This document shows positions 5,006-62,310 of a stretch of 64,000 nt of DNA, piece after piece. Source of the stretch: Escherichia virus KFS-EC3; sequence record MZ065353.1. One strand, written 5' to 3'. The notes under the pieces were generated by a model, which worked only from the letters and a program-made list of their open reading frames with translations, did no database searches and was not told where the DNA came from. A program made the translations under genes and the position numbers. Numbering within the stretch: position 1 is the stretch's first letter; each line of letters starts with the position of its first letter.

Positions 5006-5035
5006 GTTTACTTTCCATTTGAGCTGTGATACTAT
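5006..5035 (+). promoter_or_regulatory. T4-type early promoter (GTTTAC cassette)
   Basis: GTTTAC, 17-nt spacer, TACTAT; ATG 58 nt downstream of GTTTAC. Confidence 0.55.
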
Positions 5036-5063
5036 ACAACTATCGGATAAAGAGGAGAACATC

Positions 5064-5252
5064 ATGAAAATTGAAGCACTCAATCAAGAAGGAAACATCT
5101 ACGTCATCATTAATGGTGATTTTTTCGTCGACATGGATGAAGTTACTAGTGAAGAACTTGTAGAAGTTCTTAAGAAACGCTATAGTATGTGTGATGAAGC
5201 TGCAACTCATATGGCGTGTGCAATATTCTCTCTTTCATATGTGGTGGAATAA
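5064..5252 (+). CDS. hypothetical acidic protein (62 aa)
   Basis: ATG with AAGAGGAG RBS; track start at 5019 is an extension. Confidence 0.5.
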
Positions 5253-5817: not shown

Positions 5818-5847
5818 GTTTACAAGTTGGCAAGGTTATGGTATAGT
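5818..5847 (+). promoter_or_regulatory. T4-type early promoter (GTTTAC cassette)
   Basis: GTTTAC, 17-nt spacer, GTATAGT; 58 nt to ATG 5876. Confidence 0.5.
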
Positions 5848-5875
5848 AATCTTGTCAACTGCCAAGGAGAAGAGA

Positions 5876-8424: not shown

Positions 8425-8454
8425 GTTTACAAGCATAAAGCTTTATGGTACTAT
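8425..8454 (+). promoter_or_regulatory. T4-type early promoter cassette (PeSL-like)
   Basis: AAAATTTTTCACAAAACTGTTTAC upstream element, GTTTAC, TACTAT; shared TATACAACTATCAAC leader. Confidence 0.55.
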
Positions 8455-8488
8455 ACAACTATCAACTGATACGGATTTGGAGAATAAA

Positions 8489-9457
8489 ATGAAAACTGTA
8501 ACTATCAATAAGGGTATCTACTTCGGTAAAGAAATCTCTGGAACTTTTGAGCTCTTAGGCGAATGGTTCCCAGATAATGCTCCGGTAGATGCACAAGGAG
8601 ATGGTAAAGTTTTTGTTGAAATTGACGGTAAACGTCGCGGTGTTTGGGTTTACAAATCAGATATTTCATATGATGGTGTAAAAGTTGAAGAAGTTAAAGA
8701 ATCATATGAAGATATGAAAACCCGCATTAATAAAAGATTTAATGTTATGGGAATGATGACGAATGGTATTATTAATGGAAATATTCGTTCATTAATTATC
8801 TCTGGCGCAGCAGGTATTGGTAAAACGTATTCTTTAGATAAAGCTTTAAATAAAGCAAATGATAATGGATACATTGAATATAAAAGCATTAATGGTAAAA
8901 TCTCTGGTATTGGTCTTTATGAGCAGCTTTGGAATAATCGTGAAGAGAACTCTGTCCTTTTGATTGATGATGTGGATGTTTTCTCTGATATGGACATTCT
9001 TAATCTTCTAAAAGCTGCTCTGGACACCGGAGAGACCCGTAAAGTCTGCTGGAGCACTGCATCTTCTTACTTAGAAGAAAAAGGCATTGACCGTGAGTTT
9101 GAATTTAAAGGAACGATTGTTTTTATCACAAACGTTGACATTGACCGCGAATTAGACCGTGGTACTAAACTTGCCCCACACTTACAAGCATTAGTGTCCC
9201 GCTCAGTTTATTTGGATTTGGGTGTTCACACTAATGAAGAAATTATGGTCAGGGTTGAAGATGTTATTCTTTCAACCGACATGATGCAAAAGCGCGGTCT
9301 TTCTGATGAAGAAACTTATAAAGCATTATCATGGATGAAAGTCAATGTTAATCGTTTACGCAATGTTTCACTGCGTACTGCTCTTTATCTTGCTGACTTT
9401 ATTATGACCGACAAAAACGGTTGGGAAGAAATTGCTGAGGTTACTCTTCTGAAATAA
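8489..9457 (+). CDS. P-loop ATPase (AAA-like)
   Basis: Walker A GAAGIGKT and Walker B LLIDDVD; track start at 8321 is an extension across the promoter. Confidence 0.65.
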   Translation: MKTVTINKGIYFGKEISGTFELLGEWFPDNAPVDAQGDGKVFVEIDGKRRGVWVYKSDISYDGVKVEEVKESYEDMKTRINKRFNVMGMMTNGIINGNIRSLIISGAAGIGKTYSLDKALNKANDNGYIEYKSINGKISGIGLYEQLWNNREENSVLLIDDVDVFSDMDILNLLKAALDTGETRKVCWSTASSYLEEKGIDREFEFKGTIVFITNVDIDRELDRGTKLAPHLQALVSRSVYLDLGVHTNEEIMVRVEDVILSTDMMQKRGLSDEETYKALSWMKVNVNRLRNVSLRTALYLADFIMTDKNGWEEIAEVTLLK

Positions 9458-9861: not shown

Positions 9862-9863
9862 TG

Positions 9864-9921
9864 GTTTACAAGACTGTTCCTCTGTGGTACTATACAACTA
9901 TCAACTACGGAGGAACAGAAA
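9864..9921 (+). promoter_or_regulatory. promoter-early-stem-loop (PeSL) cassette
   Basis: GTTTAC, TACTAT; perfect 9-bp inverted repeat CTGTTCCTC/GAGGAACAG flanks the -10; identical copy at 62139. Confidence 0.6.
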
Positions 9922-10449
9922 ATGAACGCTAAAGATATTTTCAACTTGGTAAATTACAACGATGGTAAATTTAAATCTGAAGCACAAAGCAAGTTCTTTA
10001 ATGACATCTCAATCGGAGGTGAAATCACTGTTGATGGAGGACAAATTTACAAATCCCGTTGGAATTGGATCGTTATTATTGATGAGATTGGTATTGTAGA
10101 AATTTACAAGAATACGAATAAAAATCGTACATTACATTGGTCTCGTGATACTAACGAACAGTACAAAAAGGATAAAGCATCTAAATTATCTCGTGTAACT
10201 CAAGAAGATATTGAGTTCATCAAGAAAGATATTTTAATGTATGATAACTTAATTGCTGAAGAGCAAGCTGTTATTGATAAATTTGACGAGATTAAAGCTT
10301 CTCGTGAAATTCCTGATTTTATGAAAGAATCAGTAAATGAACGATACACTCTCATTTCAGAGCGTATTGAAACTTACAAAAAGCAAAGAGCTGAACGCCA
10401 AAATACTCTTCGGAAGTTTGAAGAACGGTTAAAGACGGTACTCGCATAA
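9922..10449 (+). CDS. hypothetical protein (175 aa)
   Basis: ORF track; GGAGGA RBS within the cassette. Confidence 0.6.
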   Translation: MNAKDIFNLVNYNDGKFKSEAQSKFFNDISIGGEITVDGGQIYKSRWNWIVIIDEIGIVEIYKNTNKNRTLHWSRDTNEQYKKDKASKLSRVTQEDIEFIKKDILMYDNLIAEEQAVIDKFDEIKASREIPDFMKESVNERYTLISERIETYKKQRAERQNTLRKFEERLKTVLA

Positions 10450-11818: not shown

Positions 11819-12841
11819 ATGAAAACTCGTTCTCAAATTGAAGATATGGTTCGTACTGCCAGCGATACTCGTAATGTTATGACATTTTTGTGTGAAAATA
11901 ATTTAGACCCTGATAAAGTTAATCGTGCTATTCATCACTTTAAATATCTAAATAGCAGTGAATGGTTACGTCATTTTAGTAAAGCGGGGTATATTACACA
12001 AATGACGGCTCGTGAGCAGCTCACCGATTTCTGTAAAACCATTGATTATAAAAATCCTCTATTTGTTCAAGGCGTTGGTCAGAGTAAGGTCGATTTATCA
12101 TCTGGATTTTTCAATCCAAATCATTATCGTATTGAATGGAGATTTATTGCTCTATTCCGTAAACAATTAAAGCAAATTTTGTCGACGGCTAGTCGATTAA
12201 AAGGTTCTGACATTAACTTAAAGAACCTGAAATTTGATGGTTATACTCTTCAGATGGAAGTAAGACCATTAAAAGAAAATAACAGAACTGCACGAATTAG
12301 CTTTAAACCTAATACAAAAAATTCTCTTTCAATTTGCGAATGCCTTAAATCGCAGTTGACAGAAGCATTTAAGTATATGGATGTTGTTGCCGCAGTTCAG
12401 TCTAAGATTTTACCTCGTTTTGGGCGATTTAAATTAGACACAACAACATATGAACTTGATATGATCGTTTCATTTAAATACGATTTTTTGAGAAAGGACG
12501 AAATCCCGCAAGAGAAAAAGCAGGAAGTGCAAGATATTTTAAATTTATCCAATTACTCATCAAACGATCCTAAATTTTGGATGTATAGTTCAGGTAATAA
12601 GGATGCATGGAAATTCAATAAAGCGAATTTTCTTCCTGTTGAAAATCCGAGTCTTAAACCTGTTGAAAAATGGCACGCGGATGCGATTGAGAAGTCTATC
12701 AAGGCAGTAGATGATGAACTCGTTAAAGCAACTAATGAAGTGTTAGAAGCTGAAAAGATGCTAGAAAAAGCTCAAGAAAAAGTCAAAAATCTCACGAAGC
12801 AACGTTCTAAACTGAACAATGCACTAAATGCACTAAACTAG
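11819..12841 (+). CDS. hypothetical protein with C-terminal coiled coil (340 aa)
   Basis: ORF track; AAGGAACACC RBS. Confidence 0.6.
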   Translation: MKTRSQIEDMVRTASDTRNVMTFLCENNLDPDKVNRAIHHFKYLNSSEWLRHFSKAGYITQMTAREQLTDFCKTIDYKNPLFVQGVGQSKVDLSSGFFNPNHYRIEWRFIALFRKQLKQILSTASRLKGSDINLKNLKFDGYTLQMEVRPLKENNRTARISFKPNTKNSLSICECLKSQLTEAFKYMDVVAAVQSKILPRFGRFKLDTTTYELDMIVSFKYDFLRKDEIPQEKKQEVQDILNLSNYSSNDPKFWMYSSGNKDAWKFNKANFLPVENPSLKPVEKWHADAIEKSIKAVDDELVKATNEVLEAEKMLEKAQEKVKNLTKQRSKLNNALNALN

Positions 12842-12870
12842 TTTACTTCGCCACAAGGATGTGGTATAAT
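12841..12870 (+). promoter_or_regulatory. T4-type early promoter
   Basis: GTTTAC, 17-nt spacer, GTATAAT; 58 nt to ATG 12899. Confidence 0.6.
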
Positions 12871-12898: not shown

Positions 12899-13825
12899 AT
12901 GACTCGTAAACATTATATTGAATATTTTGACAGTCTTATTACTAAACACCGTAATTATCAGATCGGACACAGAGCAGTAATCAATAATATTCTTCGTGAT
13001 TTCCTTCAATATGTTGGCCAGGAAAATCATATCTGTAAAGATACTCAGAACGCCTATTCTCATTCATTGGGCAATTTGCTTGAATGGTTTAAACGTTCTC
13101 GTATGTTATCTTCTACTGTAGCTCGCGATAACATTAAAAACTTTATGAAGCCGAGCTTCATTAAATCTGCAACATCTATAACCGATTTGGTTGAATTTAC
13201 TATTGTTAACGATGTTAAAAAGACCCACTTGGCTGATTGGTTATCTACCATTCCTGAAACTAAATTTGCTGATAAATTTGCTTGTCAATTCAATGACCAA
13301 GTGAATATGCTTTTTAAGCATGCTCGCAAACTATTTACTGCTGGTGATGACCGTACAAATACAGTTCATGTTAAGGATTGGGTTATTGCTGATGAAGTAA
13401 CACACAAGCCAGGTGGTTCATCAGTGTTAATTAATATCCAGGTTCCTTATTATTACTCACGTAATCTTGGCACCATGAACTCTAAAGAAATTAATAAGCA
13501 CAACAAAACTATTCGTTCGTTGTCTTATAAACTCCGCATGATGTTAAAAATCATGGACGTAGTAGAAATGTATGACGAAATCGAAGATAATGGTTCAATG
13601 TTATACAGTTCACGTATTCTAATTAAACTGAAGAACCCTAATACATATAAGACAGTTGTAAAAGAGCCTAAAGTAGAAAAGATTGATAACTTGAGCGAAG
13701 AACGTGAATATCTCAATGCTCGTTTGATTGAAGTTGAAGCCCAGATTGCCGAACACACCAAATTGTTAAAAGCTCTTAATGCAAAAGCAAATGGTTTACG
13801 TAATGCTATTGAGGTATTGAAATGA
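12899..13825 (+). CDS. hypothetical protein with C-terminal coiled coil (308 aa)
   Basis: ATG with GAGGAG RBS; the track ATG at 12869 lies inside the -10 box. Confidence 0.6.
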   Translation: MTRKHYIEYFDSLITKHRNYQIGHRAVINNILRDFLQYVGQENHICKDTQNAYSHSLGNLLEWFKRSRMLSSTVARDNIKNFMKPSFIKSATSITDLVEFTIVNDVKKTHLADWLSTIPETKFADKFACQFNDQVNMLFKHARKLFTAGDDRTNTVHVKDWVIADEVTHKPGGSSVLINIQVPYYYSRNLGTMNSKEINKHNKTIRSLSYKLRMMLKIMDVVEMYDEIEDNGSMLYSSRILIKLKNPNTYKTVVKEPKVEKIDNLSEEREYLNARLIEVEAQIAEHTKLLKALNAKANGLRNAIEVLK

Positions 13826-14190
13826 AAAAGCGTCTATTAGAAGATATTGCCGAAGCTTCAGATTTTCCTGAATGGACTCCATGCGCTGGGTTTGATAAAG
13901 GACTGTTAGTTACTGACGATTTAGATTTTAAACCTCCAGCCTGGGATGCTATTATGGCTATGGTTGAACGTCGCGAAAGGGCTTCTAAAAACGTTCCTAA
14001 TTGTCCTGAATGCGGTACTGAACAGGTTCAATTGATTAACTGGCGTAAACCGGAACTTGAATATAAATGCCGTCATTGTAAACACAAATTTAGCAAGCAT
14101 GCTCCGGAAATGGTTAAATTACCTGACTCTACTGAGTTCTTTAAAGAACTTGCGAGTGTTCAACCAATGCCTAATAATATTTTGGATTAA
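13822..14190 (+). CDS. zinc-ribbon protein (122 aa)
   Basis: CPECG...CRHC pairs; ATGA coupling. Confidence 0.55.
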
Positions 14191-16508: not shown

Positions 16509-18322
16509 CAATTGAAAAAGAAATTGAAGGATTGATTCATAAAACTAATAAAGACCTTTTGAACGAGAATGCTAATAAAGATTCTCGTGTTTTTCCAACT
16601 CAACGGGACCTTATGGCTGGTATTGTGTCTAAACACATTGCCAAAAATATGGTCCCGTCTTTTATTATGAAAGCGCATGAAAGCGGAATTATCCATTTCC
16701 ATGATATTGATTATTCCCCTGCTCTTCCATTTACTAATTGCTGTTTAGTAGATTTAAAAGGAATGCTTGAAAACGGATTTAAGCTAGGCAATGCACAGAT
16801 TGAAACTCCTAAATCAATCGGCGTTGCTACTGCAATTATGGCACAAATTACTGCACAGGTCGCTTCACATCAGTATGGCGGAACGACTTTTGCTAATGTA
16901 GATAAAATACTTTCTCCTTATGTTAAACGCACCTATGCAAAACATATTGAGGATGCAGAAAAATGGCAAATCGCTGATGCGTTGAATTATGCCCAATCTA
17001 AAACAGAAAAAGACGTATACGATGCATTCCAAGCTTATGAATATGAAGTAAATACTCTCTTTAGTTCAAACGGACAAACGCCTTTTGTAACAATTACATT
17101 TGGTACGGGAACTGACTGGACTGAACGAATGATTCAGAAAGCAATTCTGAAAAATCGCATTAAAGGCCTTGGTCGCGATGGGATAACTCCTATTTTCCCT
17201 AAGCTTGTTATGTTCGTTGAAGAAGGTGTTAATCTTTATAAAGACGATCCGAACTATGATATTAAGCAGCTTGCTCTAGAGTGTGCAAGCAAAAGAATGT
17301 ATCCTGATATTATTTCAGCTAAGAACAATAAAGCTATCACCGGTTCATCTATTCCTGTTTCTCCAATGGGTTGCCGTAGTTTCTTAAGCGTATGGAAAGA
17401 TTCGACTGGTAATGAAATTCTTGATGGACGTAATAATCTTGGCGTTGTAACACTGAATCTTCCTCGTATTGCGTTAGATTCTTATATTGGAACACAGTTT
17501 AATGAACAGAAATTTACTGAATTATTCAATGAGCGAATGGATTTATGTTTTGAAGCTTTGATGTGTAGAATTAGTTCCTTAAAAGGAGTTAAAGCGACTG
17601 TTGCTCCTATTCTTTACCAAGAAGGTGCATTCGGGGTTCGTCTTAAACCTGATGATGACATAATTGAGTTATTTAAAAACGGTAGAAGTTCAGTGTCCCT
17701 AGGATACATTGGTATTCACGAATTGAATATTCTTGTCGGTCGTGATATTGGACAGGAAATTTTGACTAAAATGAATGCTCGTCTTAAACAGTGGACTGAA
17801 AGAACCGGTTTTGCTTTTAGCTTGTATTCTACACCTGCTGAAAACCTGTGCTATCGCTTCTGTAAACTTGATACTGAAAAATATGGAAGTGTAAAAGATG
17901 TTACTGATAAAGGCTGGTACACTAACAGTTTCCATGTTTCAGTAGAAGAAAATATCACTCCGTTTGAAAAGATTTCTCGCGAAGCACCATATCATTTCAT
18001 TGCGACAGGTGGTCACATTTCTTATGTTGAACTTCCTGATATGAAAAATAACCTAAAGGGTCTTGAGGCTGTATGGGATTATGCTGCACAACATTTAGAT
18101 TATTTTGGTGTTAACATGCCAGTAGATAAATGTTTTACGTGTGGAAGTACCCATGAAATGACTCCTACTGAAAACGGGTTTGTTTGTTCTATTTGTGGAG
18201 AAACTGATCCTAAAAAGATGAACACAATAAGAAGAACTTGTGGTTATTTGGGAAATCCGAACGAACGCGGATTTAATCTCGGCAAAAATAAAGAAATCAT
18301 GCATAGGGTTAAACACCAATGA
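16505..18322 (+). CDS. nrdD: anaerobic ribonucleotide reductase, large subunit (intron-less)
   Basis: 605 aa contiguous ORF; glycyl-radical motif RTCGYLG; C-terminal Zn ribbon. Confidence 0.95.
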   Translation: MTIEKEIEGLIHKTNKDLLNENANKDSRVFPTQRDLMAGIVSKHIAKNMVPSFIMKAHESGIIHFHDIDYSPALPFTNCCLVDLKGMLENGFKLGNAQIETPKSIGVATAIMAQITAQVASHQYGGTTFANVDKILSPYVKRTYAKHIEDAEKWQIADALNYAQSKTEKDVYDAFQAYEYEVNTLFSSNGQTPFVTITFGTGTDWTERMIQKAILKNRIKGLGRDGITPIFPKLVMFVEEGVNLYKDDPNYDIKQLALECASKRMYPDIISAKNNKAITGSSIPVSPMGCRSFLSVWKDSTGNEILDGRNNLGVVTLNLPRIALDSYIGTQFNEQKFTELFNERMDLCFEALMCRISSLKGVKATVAPILYQEGAFGVRLKPDDDIIELFKNGRSSVSLGYIGIHELNILVGRDIGQEILTKMNARLKQWTERTGFAFSLYSTPAENLCYRFCKLDTEKYGSVKDVTDKGWYTNSFHVSVEENITPFEKISREAPYHFIATGGHISYVELPDMKNNLKGLEAVWDYAAQHLDYFGVNMPVDKCFTCGSTHEMTPTENGFVCSICGETDPKKMNTIRRTCGYLGNPNERGFNLGKNKEIMHRVKHQ

Positions 18323-20188: not shown

Positions 20189-20389
20189 ATGAATCCCGAA
20201 TCTAAATTATCGCAACGAATTGCTGAAGCTCGTCGTCAGTTCTTTGAAAATATGATAGCCCAAGGTATTGATGACGAAGTTTTTCTAAACTGGTTTTGGA
20301 ATCACAAATATTCAAAATGCGCAGGAGCAATATTAATATCAGCCGCAATGATGTATGAAGGCTGGAAGGGTGCCAAACAGTTTAGCTAA
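20189..20389 (+). CDS. hypothetical protein (66 aa)
   Basis: ORF track; terminator directly downstream. Confidence 0.5.
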   Translation: MNPESKLSQRIAEARRQFFENMIAQGIDDEVFLNWFWNHKYSKCAGAILISAAMMYEGWKGAKQFS

Positions 20390-20406
20390 GGGCTTCGGCC
20401 CTTTTT
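20389..20406 (+). terminator. rho-independent terminator (GGGC-TTCG-GCCC module)
   Basis: AGGGCTTCGGCCCT hairpin followed by TTTTT. Confidence 0.65.
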
Positions 20407-22823: not shown

Positions 22824-24026
22824 ATGAAAGTATGCATTTTTATGGCTCGAGGTCTTGAAGGTTGTGGCGTAACTAAATTTTCTCTTGAGCAGCGTGATTG
22901 GTTTATTAAAAATGGTCATGAAGTAACTTTGGTTTATGCTAAAGATAAATCATTTACCCGTAATTGCGCGCATGATTATAAATCATTTTCAATTCCGGTT
23001 TTATTGGCAAAAGAATACGATAAAACACTTAAGCTGGTAAATGATTGTGATATTCTAATTATCAATTCAGTTCCTGCTACTTCAGTTGAAGAAGACACTA
23101 TTAATAACTATAAAAAAATTATTGATAACATTAAACCTTCGGTTCGTGTTGTAGTTTATCAACATGACCATTCTTCTCTTTCTTTGCGCCGAAATTTGGG
23201 ATTAGAAGAAACTGTTCGTCGAGCTGATGTTATTTTTAGTCATTCTGATAATGGTGATTTTAATAAAGTTCTGATGAAAGAATGGTATCCGGAAACTGTT
23301 TCTCTGTTTGATGATATTGAAGAAGCACCGACCGTATATAACTTTCAGCCTCCTATGGATATTGCGAAGGTTCGATCAACCTACTGGAAAGATGTTTCTG
23401 AAATTAACATGAATATCAACCGTTGGATTGGTCGTACGACTACATGGAAAGGCTTTTATCAGATGTTTGATTTTCACGAAAAACATCTTAAACCTGCAGG
23501 ACTAAGTACTGTTATGGAAGGTCTGGAACGTTCTCCAGCGTTCATTCCTATTAAAGAAAAAGGAATTCCATACGAGTATTATCGTCTTCATCAAGTAGAC
23601 CAAATTAAAATTGCTCCTAATTTGCCAACGCAAATTCTCGACCGTTATGTAAATAGCGAAATGCTTGAACGCATGAGTAAATCCGGATTTGGTTATCAGC
23701 TGAGTAAATTAGATAAAAAATATCTACAACGTTCTTTAGAATACACTCATCTCGAGCTTGGCGCGTGCGGAACAATTCCAGTATTTTGGAAATCTACTGG
23801 CGAAAATTTAAAATTCCGTGTTGATAATACTCCGTTAATTTCTCATGATAGCGGTATCGTTTGGTTTGATGAAAATGACATGGAATCAACATTTGAACGT
23901 ATTAAAGAACTGTCATCTGACCGAGCTCTTTATGACCGTGAACGTGAAAAAGCTTATGAATTTTTGTATCAGCATCAAGATTCAAGCTTCTGCTTTAAAG
24001 AGCAGTTTGACATTATTACAAAATAA
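22824..24026 (+). CDS. a-gt: alpha-glucosyltransferase (hydroxymethylcytosine DNA)
   Basis: 400 aa; length, sequence and position (between 55 and 47) match T4 alpha-gt. Confidence 0.85.
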   Translation: MKVCIFMARGLEGCGVTKFSLEQRDWFIKNGHEVTLVYAKDKSFTRNCAHDYKSFSIPVLLAKEYDKTLKLVNDCDILIINSVPATSVEEDTINNYKKIIDNIKPSVRVVVYQHDHSSLSLRRNLGLEETVRRADVIFSHSDNGDFNKVLMKEWYPETVSLFDDIEEAPTVYNFQPPMDIAKVRSTYWKDVSEINMNINRWIGRTTTWKGFYQMFDFHEKHLKPAGLSTVMEGLERSPAFIPIKEKGIPYEYYRLHQVDQIKIAPNLPTQILDRYVNSEMLERMSKSGFGYQLSKLDKKYLQRSLEYTHLELGACGTIPVFWKSTGENLKFRVDNTPLISHDSGIVWFDENDMESTFERIKELSSDRALYDREREKAYEFLYQHQDSSFCFKEQFDIITK

Positions 24027-24042
24027 AGGGCTTCGGCCCTTT
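24025..24042 (+). terminator. hairpin terminator (GGGC-TTCG-GCCC module)
   Basis: AAAGGGCTTCGGCCCTTT immediately after the stop. Confidence 0.45.
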
Positions 24043-24065
24043 AGCTTTATACGGAGTTTGATATA

Positions 24066-28046: not shown

Positions 28047-28733
28047 ATGAAACTGTCTAAAGATACTACTGCTCTGCTTAAAAATTTCGCTACTATTAAC
28101 TCTGGTATTATGCTTAAATCCGGTCAATTTATTATGACTCGCGCAGTTAATGGTACAACTTATGCGGAAGCAAATATTTCTGACACTATTGATTTTGATG
28201 TAGCAATTTACGATTTGAACGGTTTTCTCGGTATTCTGTCCCTAGTTAATGACGATGCAGAAATTTCCCAGTCAGAAGATGGAAATATTAAAATTGCTGA
28301 TGCTCGTTCAACAATTTTTTGGCCAGCAGCTGATCCGAGTACAGTAGTTGCTCCTAATAAACCAATTCCATTCCCGGTAGCATCTGTTGTTACTGAAATT
28401 AAAGCTGAAGATCTTCAGCAGCTGTTGCGTGTATCTCGTGGTCTGCAGATTGATACAATTGCTATCACAGTAAAAGAAGGTAAAATCGTAATTAACGGTT
28501 TTAATAAAGTAGAAGATTCTGCTTTGACCCGTGTTAAATATTCTTTGACTCTTGGTGATTATGATGGTGAAAATACATTTAATTTCATTATCAATATGGC
28601 AAATATGAAAATGCAACCAGGAAATTATAAACTTCTGCTCTGGGCAAAAGGTAAACAAGGCGCTGCTAAATTTGAAGGTGAACACGCGAATTATGTAGTA
28701 GCTCTTGAAGCTGATTCTACCCACGACTTTTAA
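28047..28733 (+). CDS. 45: sliding clamp
   Basis: 228 aa; length, sequence and position match T4 gp45. Confidence 0.95.
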   Translation: MKLSKDTTALLKNFATINSGIMLKSGQFIMTRAVNGTTYAEANISDTIDFDVAIYDLNGFLGILSLVNDDAEISQSEDGNIKIADARSTIFWPAADPSTVVAPNKPIPFPVASVVTEIKAEDLQQLLRVSRGLQIDTIAITVKEGKIVINGFNKVEDSALTRVKYSLTLGDYDGENTFNFIINMANMKMQPGNYKLLLWAKGKQGAAKFEGEHANYVVALEADSTHDF

Positions 28734-28736
28734 TAA

Positions 28737-28750
28737 AGGGCTTCGGCCCT
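28737..28750 (+). terminator. hairpin terminator (GGGC-TTCG-GCCC module)
   Basis: AGGGCTTCGGCCCT after the gene 45 stop. Confidence 0.5.
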
Positions 28751-28784
28751 TTATAATTTACACTAAAACTTGAATGAGGAAATT

Positions 28785-33820: not shown

Positions 33821-33878
33821 GTTTACATCCCTGTTCTTCCATGGTACTATACAACTATCAACTACGGAGGAACACAAA
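33821..33878 (+). promoter_or_regulatory. early promoter cassette (PeSL-like)
   Basis: upstream element plus GTTTAC, TACTAT and the TATACAACTATCAACTACGGAGGAACA leader; 58 nt to ATG. Confidence 0.55.
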
Positions 33879-34130
33879 ATGAAAAACATTCAAACTAATT
33901 TTATTCAAAATTTAAAAGTTGTTAATGCAGAAAAAGCTAATAAACTCTTTAAAGTTAAAGAATTCGAAAATGAAGGTAATACTTATGGTATTATAGAACA
34001 AAATGGAATGGTGACTGGATTAGAAATTTATAATGGCAAAGGAAAATTTCAGTCACAGCCAATTTCTGTTATGGGTGTAAGAAAAGGAATTAAAACTGAA
34101 GATGCTTTAAAATTATTTGTTAAGTTTTAA
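33879..34130 (+). CDS. hypothetical protein (83 aa)
   Basis: ATG at fixed cassette distance; track start at 33696 is an extension. Confidence 0.55.
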   Translation: MKNIQTNFIQNLKVVNAEKANKLFKVKEFENEGNTYGIIEQNGMVTGLEIYNGKGKFQSQPISVMGVRKGIKTEDALKLFVKF

Positions 34131-38752: not shown

Positions 38753-40180
38753 GTGGTAGAAATTATTCTTTCTCATCTCATATTTGATCAAGCTTATTTT
38801 TCAAAAGTTTGGCCATATATGGATTCAGAATATTTTGAAAGTGGTCCAGCTAAAAATACATTCAAATTAATTAAATCTCATGTTAATGAGTACCATAGCG
38901 TTCCATCTATTAATGCGTTAAATGTTGCATTAGAAAATAGTTCATTTACTGAAACAGAATATTCTGGTGTAAAAACACTTATTTCAAAACTGGCCGATTC
39001 TCCGGAAGACCATAGCTGGTTAGTAAAAGAAACAGAAAAATATGTTCAGCAAAGGGCGATGTTTAACGCCACATCTAAAATAATTGAAATTCAAACTAAT
39101 GCTGAGCTTCCTCCGGAAAAACGAAATAAGAAAATGCCAGATGTAGGTGCTATTCCTGACATCATGCGCCAAGCATTATCAATTTCATTTGATAGCTACG
39201 TTGGTCATGATTGGATGGATGACTACGAAGCACGTTGGCTATCTTATATGAATAAAGCTCGTAAGGTTCCATTTAAACTCAAAATTCTAAATAAAATTAC
39301 TAAAGGCGGAGCTGAGACTGGAACACTGAACGTTTTAATGGCTGGTGTTAACGTTGGTAAGTCATTAGGATTGTGTTCATTGGCAGCAGATTATTTGCAG
39401 CTCGGACACAATGTTCTTTACATTTCCATGGAAATGGCAGAAGAAGTCTGTGCTAAACGTATTGATGCTAATATGCTTGACGTTTCTCTTGATGACATTG
39501 ATGATGGGCATATTTCTTACGCTGAATATAAAGGAAAAATGGAAAAATGGCGTGAGAAATCTACTCTTGGACGTTTAATCGTTAAACAGTATCCTACTGG
39601 TGGAGCAGACGCTAATACATTTCGATCGCTTTTAAACGAATTAAAGCTCAAGAAGAATTTTGTTCCAACAATCATTATTGTTGACTATCTAGGTATTTGT
39701 AAATCTTGTCGCATCAGAGTTTATTCAGAAAATAGTTACACAACTGTTAAAGCTATCGCAGAGGAATTGCGTGCTCTGGCTGTTGAAACCGAAACTGTTC
39801 TTTGGACTGCAGCACAGGTTGGTAAACAAGCTTGGGATTCTTCTGATGTTAACATGAGCGATATTGCAGAATCTGCCGGTCTTCCAGCAACAGCCGATTT
39901 TATGCTTGCGGTCATTGAAACCGAGGAGTTAGCAGCTGCTGAACAACAACTCATTAAGCAAATCAAATCACGATACGGTGATAAGAATAAATGGAATAAG
40001 TTTTTGATGGGTGTTCAAAAAGGAAATCAGAAATGGGTAGAAATTGAACAAGATTCTACTCCAACTGAAGTGAACGAAGTAGCAGGTTCACAGCAGATTC
40101 AGGCTGAACAGAATCGCTATCAAAGAAACGAATCCGCTCGAGCTCAGTTAGATGCTTTGGCAAATGAATTAAAATTTTAG
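38753..40180 (+). CDS. 41: replicative DNA helicase
   Basis: 475 aa; GTG start; DnaB-family Walker A GVNVGKS; sequence recognised as gp41. Confidence 0.95.
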   Translation: MVEIILSHLIFDQAYFSKVWPYMDSEYFESGPAKNTFKLIKSHVNEYHSVPSINALNVALENSSFTETEYSGVKTLISKLADSPEDHSWLVKETEKYVQQRAMFNATSKIIEIQTNAELPPEKRNKKMPDVGAIPDIMRQALSISFDSYVGHDWMDDYEARWLSYMNKARKVPFKLKILNKITKGGAETGTLNVLMAGVNVGKSLGLCSLAADYLQLGHNVLYISMEMAEEVCAKRIDANMLDVSLDDIDDGHISYAEYKGKMEKWREKSTLGRLIVKQYPTGGADANTFRSLLNELKLKKNFVPTIIIVDYLGICKSCRIRVYSENSYTTVKAIAEELRALAVETETVLWTAAQVGKQAWDSSDVNMSDIAESAGLPATADFMLAVIETEELAAAEQQLIKQIKSRYGDKNKWNKFLMGVQKGNQKWVEIEQDSTPTEVNEVAGSQQIQAEQNRYQRNESARAQLDALANELKF

Positions 40181-40209
40181 TTTACAAGCCGACAAGACTA
40201 TGGTATAGT
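40180..40209 (+). promoter_or_regulatory. early promoter cassette with stem-loop
   Basis: GTTTAC, GTATAGT; ACAAGACTA/TAGTCTTGT inverted repeat around the -10. Confidence 0.5.
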
Positions 40210-40238
40210 AGTCTTGTTGGTTAAATGAGGAGATTTTT

Positions 40239-40682: not shown

Positions 40683-40725
40683 GTTTACAAGCTGATAGAG
40701 TTGTGTTATAGTAATTCTATCAGCT
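40683..40725 (+). promoter_or_regulatory. early promoter cassette with stem-loop
   Basis: GTTTAC, TTATAGT; AGCTGATAGA/TCTATCAGCT 10-bp inverted repeat around the -10. Confidence 0.5.
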
Positions 40726-43672: not shown

Positions 43673-43698
43673 TATTGCTTTATATATTTATTGTATAA
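43673..43698 (+). promoter_or_regulatory. MotA-dependent middle promoter candidate for gene 56
   Basis: MotA box ATTGCTTTA about 12 nt upstream of TATAAT. Confidence 0.45.
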
Positions 43699-43733
43699 TT
43701 AATCTACTAACCCATGAATTGAAAGGAAAAATA

Positions 43734-44252
43734 ATGGCTTACTTTAATGAATGTTCGCAACTGATCGAAGGCGCTGATAAAGCTCAAAATGAATACTGGG
43801 ATATTCTCGGTGACGAAAAAGACCCACTGCAAGTTATGCTTGATATGCAGAAATCTTTGCAGGTTCGTTTAGCTAAAGATAAACCTGAATATAACCGTCA
43901 TCCTGATGATTTGGCTACTGCAGGCGAAGTTGTCGATTGGCTGCGTAATCAGAAAGATTACATTGATGATGAATTCCGTGAACTTCTGACTTCTCTTGGT
44001 GGTATGAGCAATGGTGAAAAAGATGCATCTGCTGTATGGAAGCCTTGGAAGTCGCAGCATGGTGAACGTCGTGAAACTCTAATTACTGATTTGTCACCAC
44101 AAGACCAATTGGAAATTAAATTCGAAATGATTGATATTCTTCATTTCGTTCTGAACATGTTCCAAGGTCTCGGTCTTACGGCTGAAGAAATCTTTAAACT
44201 TTATTATCTGAAAAATGCTGAAAACTTCGCTCGTCAAGACCGAGGTTATTAA
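43734..44252 (+). CDS. 56: dCTPase/dUTPase
   Basis: 172 aa from ATG 43734; MazG-like; length and position match T4 gp56. Confidence 0.85.
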   Translation: MAYFNECSQLIEGADKAQNEYWDILGDEKDPLQVMLDMQKSLQVRLAKDKPEYNRHPDDLATAGEVVDWLRNQKDYIDDEFRELLTSLGGMSNGEKDASAVWKPWKSQHGERRETLITDLSPQDQLEIKFEMIDILHFVLNMFQGLGLTAEEIFKLYYLKNAENFARQDRGY

Positions 44253-52987: not shown

Positions 52988-53407
52988 ATGAATATTGTAA
53001 ATCTCTCTACTGGTGATTACGTATATGTATCCGTTGCTTCTCGTTCTAAAGTTGCAGGAAAGCTGGTTGAAGTTCTTTCTATAAGTGATCCAGTTTTTGG
53101 TCGTAACGAGGTTAAAGTTCGTGACGCTGATGGTAACATTGGTTATGTCTCAAGCCAATTCATTGAGCCAGAAGAAAGCGCATTTAAATGGAAACTTTGT
53201 TCTTCAGTTTTAGTTGTAAAAGACCATAAATTCACAATTGCGGCGGCAACAGATGGAACTCCGTGGACAACGAATCAAGTCGCTGGTTTTATTTCGGACC
53301 GTTGGGTAGAAGATGGCGTCAAGCTCTACAATATTGTTTTTGCAGGCCAGTTCATGGTAGTTCCTGAATTCCAAATTAAAAAATGGTGCGAAGCAGCTTT
53401 AGCATAA
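52988..53407 (+). CDS. MotB paralog (139 aa)
   Basis: shares SRSK(A/V)AGKLVE(I/V) and WVEDGVKLYN(I/V)VF motifs with motB. Confidence 0.6.
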   Translation: MNIVNLSTGDYVYVSVASRSKVAGKLVEVLSISDPVFGRNEVKVRDADGNIGYVSSQFIEPEESAFKWKLCSSVLVVKDHKFTIAAATDGTPWTTNQVAGFISDRWVEDGVKLYNIVFAGQFMVVPEFQIKKWCEAALA

Positions 53408-53514
53408 ATTTGCATAAAGTTTAAAATTTTTTCATAAAACTATATACATCAGTAGTTGATTATGGTACTATATCAATATCAACTACTGATACAGAAAACA
53501 ACTTGGAGAATAAA

Positions 53515-53784
53515 ATGGAAAACTTAATTATCATCGAACAATCTTTCAACGATTATGGTATGGCTTATGGTTATCGTGCGATAATGGAAGATTCTCGTGG
53601 ATGTGTTATCGATATTGCTGAATGTAAAGATTTACTGCAGCTTTTGAAGATTGTTCGTAAAAATTGGGATTGTGAAAACATTAAAGTTCGTGTTGTAACG
53701 GAAGAAGAAACTGTTTTTCATGATGTAAAATTTGCCAAAGGTGCTGCTACTCTTCTGAAACGCATTGCTCCACTGTTCAATTAA
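53515..53784 (+). CDS. hypothetical protein (89 aa)
   Basis: ATG with GGAGAATAAA RBS downstream of a degenerate promoter cassette. Confidence 0.5.
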   Translation: MENLIIIEQSFNDYGMAYGYRAIMEDSRGCVIDIAECKDLLQLLKIVRKNWDCENIKVRVVTEEETVFHDVKFAKGAATLLKRIAPLFN

Positions 53785-54989: not shown

Positions 54990-55250
54990 ATGAAATATGT
55001 TAATCGTTCTATCGCGGCATTAGTATTAGCAGTATCTTTAGTAGGATGTACTGATGCTGATAATGCAACCAAAGTTTTGTCTTCAAGTGGTTTTACTAAT
55101 ATTGAAATCACTGGATATAATTGGTTCGGTTGCTCTGAAAATGATTTCCAGCATACTGGATTTCGTGCTATTGGACCTACCGGGCAGAAAGTAGAAGGAA
55201 CCGTATGTTCTGGTCTATTCTTCAAGGATTCGACTATCCGTTTTAAATAA
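54990..55250 (+). CDS. lipoprotein (86 aa)
   Basis: signal peptide with lipobox LVGC. Confidence 0.55.
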   Translation: MKYVNRSIAALVLAVSLVGCTDADNATKVLSSSGFTNIEITGYNWFGCSENDFQHTGFRAIGPTGQKVEGTVCSGLFFKDSTIRFK

Positions 55251-55267
55251 AAGGCCTTCGGGCCTTT
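55251..55267 (+). terminator. hairpin terminator
   Basis: AAGGCC-TTCG-GGCCTT after the stop. Confidence 0.5.
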
Positions 55268-55319
55268 AGCTTTATGATTACCGGAGTATAATATTCCCGA
55301 AACCAAACGAGGATAAGTG

Positions 55320-57137
55320 ATGATTAAGAATGAAATTAAAATTCTGAGCGATATTGAACATATCAAAAAGCGTAGCGGCATGTACATTGGTTCTTCTGCT
55401 AATGAAATGCATGAGCGCTTTCTGTTTGGTAAATGGGAAAGTGTTCAGTATGTACCTGGTCTTGTTAAGCTTATTGATGAAATTATCGATAACTCAGTAG
55501 ATGAAGGTATTCGTACTAAGTTTAAATTCGCGAATAAAATTAATGTTACTATTAAAAACAATCAAGTAACAGTTGAAGATAACGGTCGTGGTATTCCACA
55601 AGCGATGGTTAAAACACCTACTGGTGAAGAAATTCCTGGTCCTGTTGCTGCCTGGACTATTCCAAAAGCAGGTGGTAACTTTGGTGATGATAAAGAACGC
55701 GTCACTGGCGGTATGAATGGTGTTGGTTCTAGTTTAACTAACATTTTTTCTGTGATGTTTGTTGGTGAAACTGGCGACGGTCAAAATAATATTGTAGTTC
55801 GTTGTTCAAATGGCATGGAAAATAAATCATGGGAAACTATTCCTGGAAAATGGAAAGGAACTCGTGTTACTTTCATTCCTGATTTTATGTCATTTGAAAC
55901 TAATGAGCTATCTCAAGTTTATCTTGACATTACACTGGATCGTCTCCAGACACTTGCAGTAGTTTATCCTGATATTCAATTTACCTTTAACGGTAAAAAG
56001 GTTCAGGGTAATTTTAAGAAATATGCACGCCAATATGATGAGCATGCTATCGTTCAAGAACAGGAAAACTGTTCTATTGCGGTCGGTCGTTCACCCGACG
56101 GTTTTCGTCAATTAACATACGTTAATAACATTCATACTAAGAATGGTGGCCATCACATTGACTGTGTTATGGATGATATTTGTGAAGACCTTATTCCACA
56201 AATCAAACGTAAATTTAAAATTGACGTAACTAAAGCACGTGTTAAAGAATGTTTGACTATCGTTATGTTTGTTCGTGATATGAAAAACATGCGATTTGAT
56301 TCTCAGACTAAAGAGCGTTTGACTTCTCCATTTGGTGAAATTCGTAGTCATATTCAGCTTGATGCTAAAAAGATTTCACGTGCTATTTTAAATAATGAAG
56401 CAATTTTAATGCCAATTATTGAAGCTGCTTTGGCTCGTAAATTGGCGGCAGAAAAAGCAGCAGAAACTAAAGCAGCTAAAAAGGCTTCTAAAGCTAAGGT
56501 TCATAAACATATTAAAGCGAATCTTTGTGGTAAAGATGCTGACACGACTCTTTTCTTGACTGAGGGTGATTCTGCTATCGGATATCTTATTGATGTTCGT
56601 GATAAAGAACTTCATGGTGGTTATCCATTACGTGGTAAAGTTCTCAACAGTTGGGGTATGTCATATGCTGATATGCTTAAAAATAAAGAACTGTTTGATA
56701 TTTGCGCAATCACTGGATTAGTTCTTGGTGAAAAGGCTGAAAACTTAAATTATCATAATATTGCCATTATGACTGACGCTGACCATGATGGTCTAGGAAG
56801 CATTTATCCTTCTCTGCTCGGATTTTTTAGTAATTGGCCAGAACTGTTTGAACAAGGAAGAATTCGCTTTGTCAAAACTCCTGTAATCATCGCTCAGGTC
56901 GGTAAAAAACAAGAATGGTTTTATACAGTCGCTGAATATGAGAGTGCCAAAGATGCTCTACCTAAACATAGCATCCGTTATATTAAAGGACTTGGCTCTT
57001 TGGAAAAATCTGAATATCGTGAGATGATTCAAAATCCAGTATATGATGTTGTTAAACTTCCTGAGAACTGGAAAGAGCTTTTTGAAATGCTCATGGGAGA
57101 TAATGCTGACCTTCGTAAAGAATGGATGAGCCAATAG
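55320..57137 (+). CDS. 39: DNA topoisomerase II large subunit (GyrB-like), uninterrupted
   Basis: 605 aa single ORF; GHKL ATPase and TOPRIM motifs; no gene 39/60 split. Confidence 0.95.
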   Translation: MIKNEIKILSDIEHIKKRSGMYIGSSANEMHERFLFGKWESVQYVPGLVKLIDEIIDNSVDEGIRTKFKFANKINVTIKNNQVTVEDNGRGIPQAMVKTPTGEEIPGPVAAWTIPKAGGNFGDDKERVTGGMNGVGSSLTNIFSVMFVGETGDGQNNIVVRCSNGMENKSWETIPGKWKGTRVTFIPDFMSFETNELSQVYLDITLDRLQTLAVVYPDIQFTFNGKKVQGNFKKYARQYDEHAIVQEQENCSIAVGRSPDGFRQLTYVNNIHTKNGGHHIDCVMDDICEDLIPQIKRKFKIDVTKARVKECLTIVMFVRDMKNMRFDSQTKERLTSPFGEIRSHIQLDAKKISRAILNNEAILMPIIEAALARKLAAEKAAETKAAKKASKAKVHKHIKANLCGKDADTTLFLTEGDSAIGYLIDVRDKELHGGYPLRGKVLNSWGMSYADMLKNKELFDICAITGLVLGEKAENLNYHNIAIMTDADHDGLGSIYPSLLGFFSNWPELFEQGRIRFVKTPVIIAQVGKKQEWFYTVAEYESAKDALPKHSIRYIKGLGSLEKSEYREMIQNPVYDVVKLPENWKELFEMLMGDNADLRKEWMSQ

Positions 57138-57166
57138 TTTACTTTACCACAAGGATGTGGTATAAT
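57137..57166 (+). promoter_or_regulatory. T4-type early promoter
   Basis: GTTTAC, 17 nt, GTATAAT. Confidence 0.6.
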
Positions 57167-59594: not shown

Positions 59595-60533
59595 ATGTAC
59601 AATATTAAATGCCTGACCAAAAACGAACAAGCTGAAATTGTTAAATTGTATTCAAGCGGTAATTATACTCAGCAGGAATTGGCTGATTGGCAAGGTGTAT
59701 CGGTTGACACAATCCGCCGTGTTTTGAAAAATGCCGAAGAAGCTGGTCGTTCTAAAGTTACTATTAGTGGTGACATTACAGTTAAAGTTAAGAGCGATGC
59801 AGTTATTGCTCCAGTTGCTAAATCTGACATTATTTGGAATGCATCTAAAAAATTCATTTCAATTACTGTTGATGGTGTAACTTATAACGCAACTCCTAAT
59901 ACTCATTCAAACTTCCAGGAAATTCTTAATCTGCTTGTTGCAGATAAACTGGAAGAAGCAGCACAAAAAATTAATGTTCGCCGTGCTGTTGAAAAATATA
60001 TTTCCGGCGATGTTCGAATTGAAGGTGGAAGTTTGTTCTATCAAAATATCGAATTGCGATCTGGTTTAGTTGATCGTATTCTTGATTCGATGGAAAAAGG
60101 TGAAAATTTTGAATTTTATTTTCCGTTCTTGGAAAATCTGTTGGAAAACCCAAGCCAAAAAGCGGTGTCTCGACTCTTTGATTTCTTGGTAGCAAATGAT
60201 ATTGAAATTACAGAAGATGGCCACTTCTATGCTTGGAAAGTAGTTCGCAGTAATTACTTCGACTGCCATTCAAATACTTTTGATAACAGTCCGGGTAAAG
60301 TAGTTAAAATGCCACGTACTCGCGTGAATGACGACGATACACAAACTTGTTCTCGTGGTTTGCATGTGTGTTCTAAATCTTATATTCGTCACTTTGGTAG
60401 TTCAACTAGTCGAGTCGTAAAAGTTAAAGTACACCCTCGCGATGTAGTATCAATTCCAATTGATTACAATGATGCTAAAATGCGTACCTGCCAATACGAA
60501 GTAGTTGAAGACGTTACTGAACAATTCAAATAA
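59595..60533 (+). CDS. rIIB: rIIB protein
   Basis: 312 aa; sequence recognised as T4 rIIB. Confidence 0.95.
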   Translation: MYNIKCLTKNEQAEIVKLYSSGNYTQQELADWQGVSVDTIRRVLKNAEEAGRSKVTISGDITVKVKSDAVIAPVAKSDIIWNASKKFISITVDGVTYNATPNTHSNFQEILNLLVADKLEEAAQKINVRRAVEKYISGDVRIEGGSLFYQNIELRSGLVDRILDSMEKGENFEFYFPFLENLLENPSQKAVSRLFDFLVANDIEITEDGHFYAWKVVRSNYFDCHSNTFDNSPGKVVKMPRTRVNDDDTQTCSRGLHVCSKSYIRHFGSSTSRVVKVKVHPRDVVSIPIDYNDAKMRTCQYEVVEDVTEQFK

Positions 60534-60547
60534 GGGCTTCGGCCCTT
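60532..60547 (+). terminator. hairpin (GGGC-TTCG-GCCC module)
   Basis: AAGGGCTTCGGCCCTT beginning inside the rIIB stop codon. Confidence 0.5.
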
Positions 60548-60564
60548 AACTATAAAGGAAAATT

Positions 60565-60759
60565 ATGTTAGGTTATCAAGCACGAGTAAAAGAAGAATAC
60601 GATCAGCTAATGCTCAAAATTAATGCGTTGAGCAAATTTTTAGAAAGCACAAAGTTTTTAACAGTTAATGAAGTTGAACAAGAATTACTGCTTTCACAGT
60701 TTATCTCAATGAAATCTTATGCTGACTGCTTAGAGAAAAGAATTGCGCAATTCAAATAA
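60565..60759 (+). CDS. hypothetical helical protein (64 aa)
   Basis: ORF track; bracketed by two copies of the GGGCTTCGGCCC hairpin. Confidence 0.5.
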   Translation: MLGYQARVKEEYDQLMLKINALSKFLESTKFLTVNEVEQELLLSQFISMKSYADCLEKRIAQFK

Positions 60760-60761
60760 TT

Positions 60762-60785
60762 AAAGGGCTTCGGCCCTTTTGTTTT
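60762..60785 (+). terminator. rho-independent terminator (GGGC-TTCG-GCCC module)
   Basis: AAAGGGCTTCGGCCCTTTTGTTTT. Confidence 0.65.
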
Positions 60786-60795
60786 AAGGGAAATT

Positions 60796-61631: not shown

Positions 61632-61689
61632 GTTTACATACCACAAGGACTGTGGTATTATACAACTATCAACTACGGAGGAACAGAAA
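61632..61689 (+). promoter_or_regulatory. early promoter cassette (PeSL-like)
   Basis: upstream element, GTTTAC, TATTAT, shared leader; 58 nt to ATG. Confidence 0.55.
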
Positions 61690-61953
61690 ATGAAATTTAA
61701 GTTCTTTTACGTTAAACATAAAATTACCGGTGAATTTATTGCATTTACGACTTCAACTACAGATGAAGGAGATATTTTTACTGCAGTATTTTTATCAAAA
61801 TGGGAATCAGATCAACCTTACTTATCATCACGTGAAGATCTTCAACAATTAGTTAATGGAGAATATAATGATTCATGGTCATATTTAGTCCATGATTGTG
61901 TTAAAAAGGCAATAAAACAAAAACGCTTGGAAATCGTTGAGATTGAACTATGA
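61690..61953 (+). CDS. hypothetical protein (87 aa)
   Basis: ATG at cassette distance; track start at 61597 is an extension. Confidence 0.55.
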   Translation: MKFKFFYVKHKITGEFIAFTTSTTDEGDIFTAVFLSKWESDQPYLSSREDLQQLVNGEYNDSWSYLVHDCVKKAIKQKRLEIVEIEL

Positions 61954-62036: not shown

Positions 62037-62131
62037 AAATTTTGAATTCTGTACTTATTGCTTGTGCGTGGTGGGTTGTGCAAGTTTCAGCGGTAGTAGT
62101 TGGTATTCACATTTATTACGAATATTTTTAA
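62033..62131 (+). CDS. possible tiny membrane peptide (32 aa)
   Basis: ATGA coupling; hydrophobic. Confidence 0.25.
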   Translation: MKILNSVLIACAWWVVQVSAVVVGIHIYYEYF

Positions 62132-62138
62132 AAAAGTT

Positions 62139-62196
62139 GTTTACAAGACTGTTCCTCTGTGGTACTATACAACTATCAACTACGGAGGAACAGAAA
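62139..62196 (+). promoter_or_regulatory. PeSL cassette (exact copy of 9864-9921)
   Basis: 63-bp identity to the cassette at 9864 through the first codons. Confidence 0.6.
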
Positions 62197-62310
62197 ATGA
62201 AAAAGATTGTTAAAGCTATATGGAATGTAATTATAATTTTAGTTGTTTTGAGTATATTCCCAATTGTTTTAATGATTGATGTATTAAACGCTTACTTTGG
62301 ATTTATGTGA
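62197..62310 (+). CDS. small membrane peptide (37 aa)
   Basis: ATG at cassette distance; single TM helix. Confidence 0.4.
   Translation: MKKIVKAIWNVIIILVVLSIFPIVLMIDVLNAYFGFM

Follow-up and report, generated by a model that had tools for sequence, protein, structure and literature searches.

Identical early promoter-leader cassettes at nrdC.8 and ndd.4 of a T4-like phage are probably homogenized resident paralogs with a predicted SD-masking hairpin

The window analyzed here, a 64,000-nucleotide stretch of Escherichia virus KFS-EC3 (sequence record MZ065353.1), belongs to a T4-like phage (Tequatrovirus) and is presented in the direction of early transcription. Using blastn against three stretches of T4, it was found to be colinear with T4 from 56000 to 1 and then from 168903 to 165116, in reversed orientation; thus, the plus strand of the window corresponds to the early-transcribed strand of T4. 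Two identical promoter-leader cassettes lie on this strand, copy 1 (9864-9926) 5' of a homolog of nrdC.8 and copy 2 (62139-62201) 5' of a homolog of ndd.4. Identity between the window and Tequatroviruses is 95 to 99%. The region of copy 1 shares 98 to 99% identity with ime09, PP01, and other Tequatrovirus genomes, in which it spans nrdC.6 to nrdC.10, and the region of copy 2 is 91 to 95% identical to the denB-ndd region of Tequatroviruses. The nrdC.8 homolog (9922-10449, plus strand) encodes 175 amino acids and falls in phrog_2274, and the ndd.4 homolog (62197-62310, plus strand) encodes a hydrophobic 37-amino-acid peptide, MKKIVKAIWNVIIILVVLSIFPIVLMIDVLNAYFGFM, that falls in phrog_3098, confirming the 175-aa ORF and the 37-aa membrane peptide that an initial annotation of this DNA had placed behind the copies. 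As both are PHROG families without known function and a Pfam search gave no match for either homolog, the downstream genes provide no functional link between the two loci. Rfam was also searched with the whole window, without a match.

When both sites were read directly, each was found to hold the same 63 bp, GTTTACAAGACTGTTCCTCTGTGGTACTATACAACTATCAACTACGGAGGAACAGAAAATGAA, consisting of a promoter, a leader, an SD sequence, and ATGAA. The copies are direct repeats on the plus strand with 0 mismatches (100% identity). A pattern search of both strands of the window, allowing up to 3 mismatches, returned these two matches and no more, and no matches were obtained in 100 dinucleotide shuffles. The edges of the repeat are sharp, with g at 9863 against t at 62138 on one side and c at 9927 against a at 62202 on the other. 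The flanks of the two copies are unrelated except for A+T-richness upstream, where the 20 nt 5' of copy 1 (gaaagaagtttcttttagtg) are 70% A+T and the 20 nt 5' of copy 2 (cgaatatttttaaaaaagtt) are 85% A+T. The initial annotation had described an exact 63-bp duplication 52 kb apart, set in otherwise unrelated sequence, and both statements agree with the sites as read; its reference to ATGAA as the first two codons does not, as these letters make up one codon and two bases.

A consensus scan identified a promoter at 9865-9893 of copy 1 (plus strand), composed of TTTACA, a 17-nt spacer, a TGg extended -10, and the -10 box TACTAT (9888-9893). Copy 2 carries identical elements at 62140-62168 (plus strand), with TACTAT at 62163-62168. 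The G at 9864 completes the T4-type -35 hexamer GTTTAC, located at 9864-9869 in copy 1 and at 62139-62144 in copy 2. Judging from spacing, transcription on the plus strand is predicted to start near 9900 and near 62175, respectively, giving each copy a leader of approximately 22 nt. Within the leader, the SD sequence GGAGG (9909-9913 and 62184-62188) is separated by a gap of 8 nt from the ATG (9922 and 62197). Both copies match exactly the consensus TTTACW-N17-TAYWAT published for PeSL promoters of PST/T4 (PMC4122927). They also possess each of the elements of a T4 early promoter, namely, an UP-like A/T tract, the -35 GTTTAC, TGn, and the -10 TAnnnT, on the early strand. Compared with the UP/-35 GTTTAC/TGn/-10 class of T4 early promoters (PMC2988021, Hinton 2010 review), nothing essential differs: no recognition element is missing, the orientation is early, and orthologous sites exist at both loci in T4; in the window, conservation runs approximately 30 nt past the -10 box and through the leader. 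Both cassettes are therefore predicted, from these elements, to act as early promoters in this phage. The GenBank record of phage Lutter carries a predicted-promoter annotation at the orthologous site. Promoter features were looked for at these loci in the T4 GenBank record and none were present, and a literature search for genome-wide mapping of T4 5' ends found nothing usable.

Repeat finding together with a promoter pattern scan located approximately 20 GTTTAC-N18-TAnnnT promoters on the plus strand of the window. The core TACTATACAACTATC, (T)GGTACTATACAACTATC, is common to at least seven cassettes (5006, 8425, 9864, 33821, 53442 [diverged], 61632, and 62139), and a leader termed type A, ACTACGGAGGAACA, is common to four of these (9864, 33821, 61632, and 62139), so that the two-copy element of the initial annotation is better described as part of a larger family. 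Among the type-A members, the cassette at 33821-33883 (plus strand) has 33 exact bp in common with the pair and is predicted to drive an 83-aa ORF (33879-34130), and the cassette at 61632-61695 (plus strand), 507 bp 5' of copy 2, has 36 to 37 exact bp in common with the pair and is predicted to drive an 87-aa ORF in the ndd.6 slot. A further member (8425-8491, plus strand), 5' of nrdC.10, combines the same -10/initial-transcribed core with a different leader, type B, and shares 22 exact bp with the pair. The diverged member (53442-53517, plus strand) has an ATATAC -35, a type-B-like leader, and a 12- to 13-bp hairpin whose arms lie on either side of the -10 box, and a partial member (5006-5066, plus strand) has the TACTATACAACTATC core, with a terminator-like hairpin just before it.

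The two leader types resemble the target of RegB/S1, a single-stranded 11-mer, GGAGRAYARAA (PMC1702504, Durand et al. 2006), to different degrees. The type-B leader, found at 8425 and 53442, ends in GGAGAATAAAATG and fits the T4 consensus GGAGAAUAAAA exactly (consensus from PMC1702504). The type-A SD region, GGAGGAACAGA, likewise has GGAGG followed by an A-rich tract; it fits 8 of the 11 positions and misses positions 7, 8, and 10. In T4, the intergenic GGAG of nrdC.8 (ortholog GGAGGAACACA) is cleaved moderately by RegB in vivo (PMC1702504).

The window departs from T4 at the cassettes at 33821, 53442, and 61632. The 83-aa ORF at 33879-34130 is extra relative to T4 and sits before imm.1; the T4 imm.1 cassette, whose position corresponds to that of the type-A cassette at 33821, combines an anti-SD spacer, AAGACTGTTCTTCC, with a type-B leader, giving an orphan 5' arm. 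An extra motB-like gene adjoins the 53442 cassette on its upstream side. A single ORF of the ndd.6 slot (MKFKF...) follows three different leaders depending on the phage, and T4 has another small ORF there. The breakpoints of these swaps lie within the shared core TACTATACAACTATCAACT, which is equivalent to the loop of the hairpin described below, and at ATGAAA.

Homologous cassettes are present at both nrdC.8 and ndd.4 in T4 and in every Tequatrovirus sampled. Relative to the window sequence, the T4 nrdC.8 cassette has 2 differences (positions 12 and 55) and the T4 ndd.4 cassette has 7, and comparison of the two T4 cassettes shows 9 differences in 63 positions. No sequence has been gained at either site in the window compared with T4. 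As both loci hold cassettes and the genomes are colinear, the identity of the two copies is best regarded as that of homogenized resident paralogs and not as a new arrival, and the suggestion that the module was transposed could not be sustained. The copy 1 cassette is identical to the nrdC.8 cassettes of PP01, FL23, ECO4, and sutha. At the ndd.4 locus, 12 phage records match the window with 100% identity for 145 bp (62085-62229), and at the nrdC.8 locus ten records do so for 146 bp. There is no overlap between these lists, and FL23 has the identical 63 bp at both loci; thus, this phage is not alone in having the exact duplication, which marks an extreme of a continuum.

Cassettes for comparison within genomes were obtained from IMG/VR contigs and GenBank phage records. 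An exact 24-mer leader scan of IMG/VR gave 4 stretches and protein-anchored scans gave 8 loci each, and because these were too few for population statistics, the GenBank phage loci were added. Twelve genomes were compared in pairs, with eight pairs read directly; for FL23, slur03, Lutter, and ime09, one cassette was read and the other was taken from a 100% BLAST match to the window. The number of differences between the nrdC.8 and ndd.4 cassettes of the same genome was 0 in the window and FL23, 1 in Lutter, 2 in sutha and slur03, 3 in Lv5cm and IMG 2974787500, 4 in ECO4, 5 in ime09, 7 in IMG 3300045988, and 9 in T4, with G8 having 2 substitutions and 1 deletion.

The distribution of these differences is mosaic. 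At ndd.4, a spacer variant (C17/T20 versus T17/C20) and a 4-nt block (ACAA or TACC at positions 31 to 34) occur in all four combinations, the carriers being the window, sutha/Lv5cm, ECO4, and T4. This block sits in the initial transcribed region. Each of the four possible pairings of the variants at positions 12 and 55 is likewise represented at nrdC.8, by the window, T4, IMG 3300045988, and Lutter. IMG 2974787500 has at nrdC.8 the TATTAT-TACC allele that Sf24 and ime09 carry at ndd.4. The -10/initial-transcribed core and the SD were invariant in all alleles. Recurrent mutation is formally possible for the single-base sites and implausible for the 4-nt block, and as a repeated mutational origin of the block is unlikely, short-tract exchange is the simplest account. 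Overall, this small sample of about a dozen paired genomes points to gene conversion between paralogous cassettes.

The consequences of recombination between the two copies are constrained by their arrangement. As the repeats are direct, inversion of the interval, one of the outcomes envisaged in the initial annotation, is impossible. The deletion also envisaged there would remove a 52,275-bp interval corresponding to T4 nrdC.7 through denB via the rII region, which holds homologs of T4 genes 43, 44, 62, 45, 41, 61, 42, 46, 47, 55, 56, 39, and 60; because essential replication genes would be lost, such a deletion could not yield a viable phage. A 52-kb duplication would exceed T4 headful packaging. 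The homology required for T4 recombination was reportedly put at roughly 50 bp by Singer et al. in 1982, which would place a 63-bp repeat near the limit. Survivors of recombination between 9864 and 62139 should thus be non-crossover products only, in line with the allele mosaic. For copy 2, a crossover is realistic with the 61632 cassette, located 507 bp upstream and having 37 exact bp in common with it (61659-61695 and 62166-62202); such an exchange would release a PeSL-type mini-circle carrying the 87-aa ORF and ndd.5.

Folding of the cassette predicts a hairpin that joins the promoter spacer to the SD. Its 5' arm, CTGTTCCTCTGTGGT (9874-9888 in copy 1 and 62149-62163 in copy 2, plus strand), lies in the spacer, 5' of the predicted start site, and its 3' arm, ACTACGGAGGAACAG (9904-9918 and 62179-62193, plus strand), contains the SD GGAGG. 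The predicted stem is 15 bp, including two G-U pairs, and the predicted start site lies in the 15-nt loop, together with the greater part of the -10 box. The arms are partly constrained for other reasons, with TGn/-10 in one and the SD in the other. RNA reading through the cassette folds at -30.2 and -24.9 kcal/mol at the two copies (z scores of -5.5 and -4.5), and 0 of 200 shuffles equaled these values. The predicted probability that the SD is unpaired is 0.00 in RNA begun upstream, against 0.43 and 0.71 in RNA begun at the predicted start. When folded as DNA, the sense strand reaches -11 kcal/mol and the antisense strand -6.9 kcal/mol; the better fold of the sense strand is that expected if G-U pairs matter and therefore points to structure at the level of RNA. 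The stem is followed by AAAAUGAA at both copies, with no U-tract, and a terminator scan found no terminator-like site at either copy. A classical intrinsic terminator is not supported on these grounds.

In the ten close alleles compared, every change at the three variable stem pairs is to G-U, and the stem breaks at two terminal pairs. Pair counts identified no double-sided compensatory change in the stem among these ten alleles; the accompanying shuffle control, in which 500 of 500 shuffles attained the observed value, was uninformative. As double-sided compensation is absent from the close alleles, support for the hairpin comes from divergent orthologs and from an excess of structure across the family. 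In nrdC.8 orthologs with 68 to 70% protein identity, the spacer CTCCAGTAG pairs with the leader CTACTGGAG and masks the SD in the predicted fold (z = -4.2), and the 3' arm of the hairpin is centered on the SD both in these orthologs and in the window cassette. In orthologs with 85% identity, a hairpin formed by AGGTCTAT and ATAGACCT extends across the -10 box and stops short of the SD. Across the window, 12 of 21 early-type promoters had -35-to-ATG segments with a z score below -2, compared with 3 of 37 controls (Mann-Whitney p = 0.003), the controls being gene starts of the window that have an SD and no promoter. For several cassettes (813, 9864, 33821, 52257, and 62139, as well as 47063 via a different arm), SD pairing was predicted in the long RNA and not in the short RNA. 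In the 61632 cassette, the type-A leader is combined with a spacer that is not complementary to it, and in the T4 imm.1 cassette the spacer is followed by a leader of the other type; SD masking is thus not obligatory in the family.

The cassettes share their general plan with PeSLs, which are defined by an A+T-rich region, an early promoter, a stem-loop, an SD, and an ATG (PMC2839356, Arbiol et al. 2010), with the stem-loop often placed between the -35 and -10 boxes or across the -10 box (PMC2839356). PeSLs have been extended to PST/T4, where the exchange of ndd.4/.5 between T4 and PST serves as a worked example (PMC4122927, Comeau et al. 2014, Fig. 6A). The window cassettes similarly have A+T-rich upstream sequence, a strong sigma-70-like early promoter, a stem-loop on the -10 box, and a 3' SD and start codon; they lie in hyperplastic regions (nrdC.x and denB-ndd), where cassettes mark the exact places of indels and ORF replacements with respect to T4. 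The designation of the repeat as a PeSL-type regulatory module therefore stands, its promoter consensus, stem-loop overlapping the -10 box, SD, and start codon all having been found. Two differences were noted. The stem-loops published for PST/T4 lie just 5' of the promoter (AGNA-loop-TCNT), a structure that copy 2 lacks and that copy 1 has in weak form, with a stem of 4 bp, whereas the stem in the window joins the spacer and the SD. In addition, the signal in the window is that of conversion over 52 kb without rearrangement, whereas the published one is excision of mini-circles between neighboring cassettes.

A parallel for the predicted role of the hairpin is provided by the T4 genes e, soc, 49, and I-TevI, in which the SD is masked in RNA initiated upstream and a late promoter inside the hairpin gives rise to translatable RNA (PMC3014915). 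As in these genes, the promoter of the window cassettes lies inside the hairpin and its own transcript would lack the 5' arm, as predicted from the fold. The promoter of the known cases is internal and late, with a temporal effect, whereas that of the window is an early sigma-70 promoter whose own spacer would serve as the anti-SD arm. The kind of element (PeSL, T4 early promoter-leader cassette) is already known; what is added here is fine-scale evidence for conversion between distant cassettes and the candidate role of the spacer as an anti-SD arm. The putative SD-masking hairpin is the sole new angle and a mildly new one.

Taken as a whole, the cassettes are likely to be paralogous PeSL-type early cassettes at ancestral positions that have been homogenized by conversion and that carry a predicted SD-masking hairpin. 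Under this account, the ancestral cassettes in front of nrdC.8 and ndd.4 would have stayed in place, with neither copy having moved, and short-tract non-crossover recombination among cassettes of the family would have homogenized the two copies in this lineage. RNA reading through from upstream promoters would carry both arms, and its SD would be masked; RNA from the cassette's own promoter would begin in the loop, lack the 5' arm, and so be translatable and open to RegB. Translational gating by the spacer-SD hairpin is plausible but unproven. More specifically, and more tentatively, the spacer may act as an anti-SD in a sizeable subset of early cassettes (813, 9864, 33821, 52257, 62139, and possibly 47063), such that own-promoter RNA alone would allow translation of each small ORF and its exposure to RegB, with read-through RNA from the many early promoters upstream being silent at that ORF.

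If a mobile promoter cassette had recently transposed or inserted into one of the sites, 63 bp of exact identity with sharp edges and unrelated flanks would readily result, and a role of PeSLs in moving ORFs, in the form of mini-circles, has been proposed (PMC2839356). With a homologous cassette at both positions in T4 and in every relative examined, colinearity with T4 without a gain of sequence at either site, and a continuum of intermediate alleles with 1 to 9 changes, such an event is nevertheless very improbable. An explanation by strong purifying selection alone, keeping the promoter and translation start at an optimum without exchange, could draw on the consensus that T4 early promoters show beyond the -35, TGn, and -10 elements (PMC2988021) and on the invariance of the -10/initial-transcribed core and the SD in all alleles. 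However, the spacer is free to vary among other early promoters, yet it is identical in both copies; the T4 loci differ at 9 positions, so differences are tolerated; and the four-gamete patterns over 11 to 43 bp and the cross-locus 4-nt block require exchange. Selection by itself is thus an improbable explanation.

Another reading concerns the hairpin, which might act on transcription, as a terminator or attenuator, or on the DNA, as a hairpin or cruciform for recombination, with no masking of the SD. The authors who described PeSLs read the stem-loops as terminators or attenuators and proposed no translational gate (PMC2839356). In RB49, the drop in expression of a downstream lacZ caused by a PeSL stem-loop was similar to that caused by the rrnB T1 terminator, and crossovers were mapped within the stem-loop or loop (PMC2839356); in the window, the hairpin loop is the shared core at which module swaps appear to occur. 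On the other side, the missing U-tract and the blank terminator scan at both copies, the structure that is good on the sense strand only owing to G-U pairs, and the centering of the 3' arm on the SD, here and in the 68- to 70%-identical orthologs, make this reading somewhat unlikely.

For annotation, repeats of this type are regulatory cassettes, neither transposition scars nor assembly errors. Should anti-SD gating be true, it would extend the principle known from e, soc, 49, and I-TevI from late to early promoters, and the "terminator" stem-loops of PeSLs would be reinterpreted as translational insulators. It would also account for conversion tracts spanning the whole 63 bp, as both arms must move jointly. 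As a real gate, the spacer-SD hairpin would also offer a compact insulator design for phage engineering. The published PeSL model of plasticity in hyperplastic regions gains support from the present data, with the outcome suggested for distant copies being non-crossover conversion rather than excision. Variant blocks of a few bases appear to move between cassettes 52 kb apart, and promoters, leaders, and ORFs appear to swap at a core of 20 to 25 nt, suggesting, at single-base resolution, that T4-like phages keep short expression cassettes alike and reshuffle them.

At three of the cassettes (early promoter, leader and start codon), each named by its window start coordinate, the neighboring gene content differs from that of T4. 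Downstream of cassette 33821, an 83-aa ORF (phrog_18567; window positions 33879 to 34130) that has no T4 counterpart lies between the cassette and the imm.1 homologue, whereas in T4 this promoter carries another leader and drives imm.1 directly. At cassette 61632, the slot that in T4 holds the 28-aa ndd.6 is occupied in the window by an 87-aa ORF (phrog_2390; 61690 to 61953), and in relatives three leader types were found ahead of this same ORF, with the promoter unchanged. Just upstream of cassette 53442, and directly 3' of the motB homologue, is a second, shorter MotB-like gene of 139 aa (52988 to 53407; Pfam motB, E = 2.7e-20; phrog_1671); the matching interval of T4 (6646 to 6557) does not contain this gene.

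Hairpins were also identified in other early-promoter subclasses. In one, found at 12841 to 12870, 57137 to 57166, and also 61632 to 61661, a small hairpin, CCACAAGGA(C)TGTGG, is contained entirely within the promoter spacer; the copies at 12839 and 57135 share 94% identity across 32 nt. A third subclass, with the -10 box TATAGT (5818 to 5855, 40180 to 40217, and 40683 to 40720), has this box flanked by 9- to 16-bp inverted repeats (e.g., ACAAGACTA...TAGTCTTGT), which end before the Shine-Dalgarno sequence and have strong predicted folding (z-scores of -4 to -5). A hairpin of sequence GGGCTTCGGCCC, with UUCG as its tetraloop and a T-run after it, recurs at 20376 to 20403, 24020 to 24050, 28730 to 28760, 55245 to 55275, 60520 to 60547, and 60757 to 60787; these copies resemble a set of related intrinsic terminators located at the ends of genes, distinct from the promoter cassettes.

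The group I intron and I-TevII of T4 appear to be missing from the nrdD homologue: approximately 1 kb of T4 (45850 to 44814) has no counterpart in the window, with the junction at about 17040 to 17043, and no introns were found by Rfam anywhere in the window. Identity to T4 is about 70 to 76% across 12902 to 14091 (the nrdC.2-nrdC.3 region) and 43694 to 44215 (the gene 56/dam region), compared with 91 to 98% across the remainder of the window, and these two low-identity stretches look like mosaic replacement patches.
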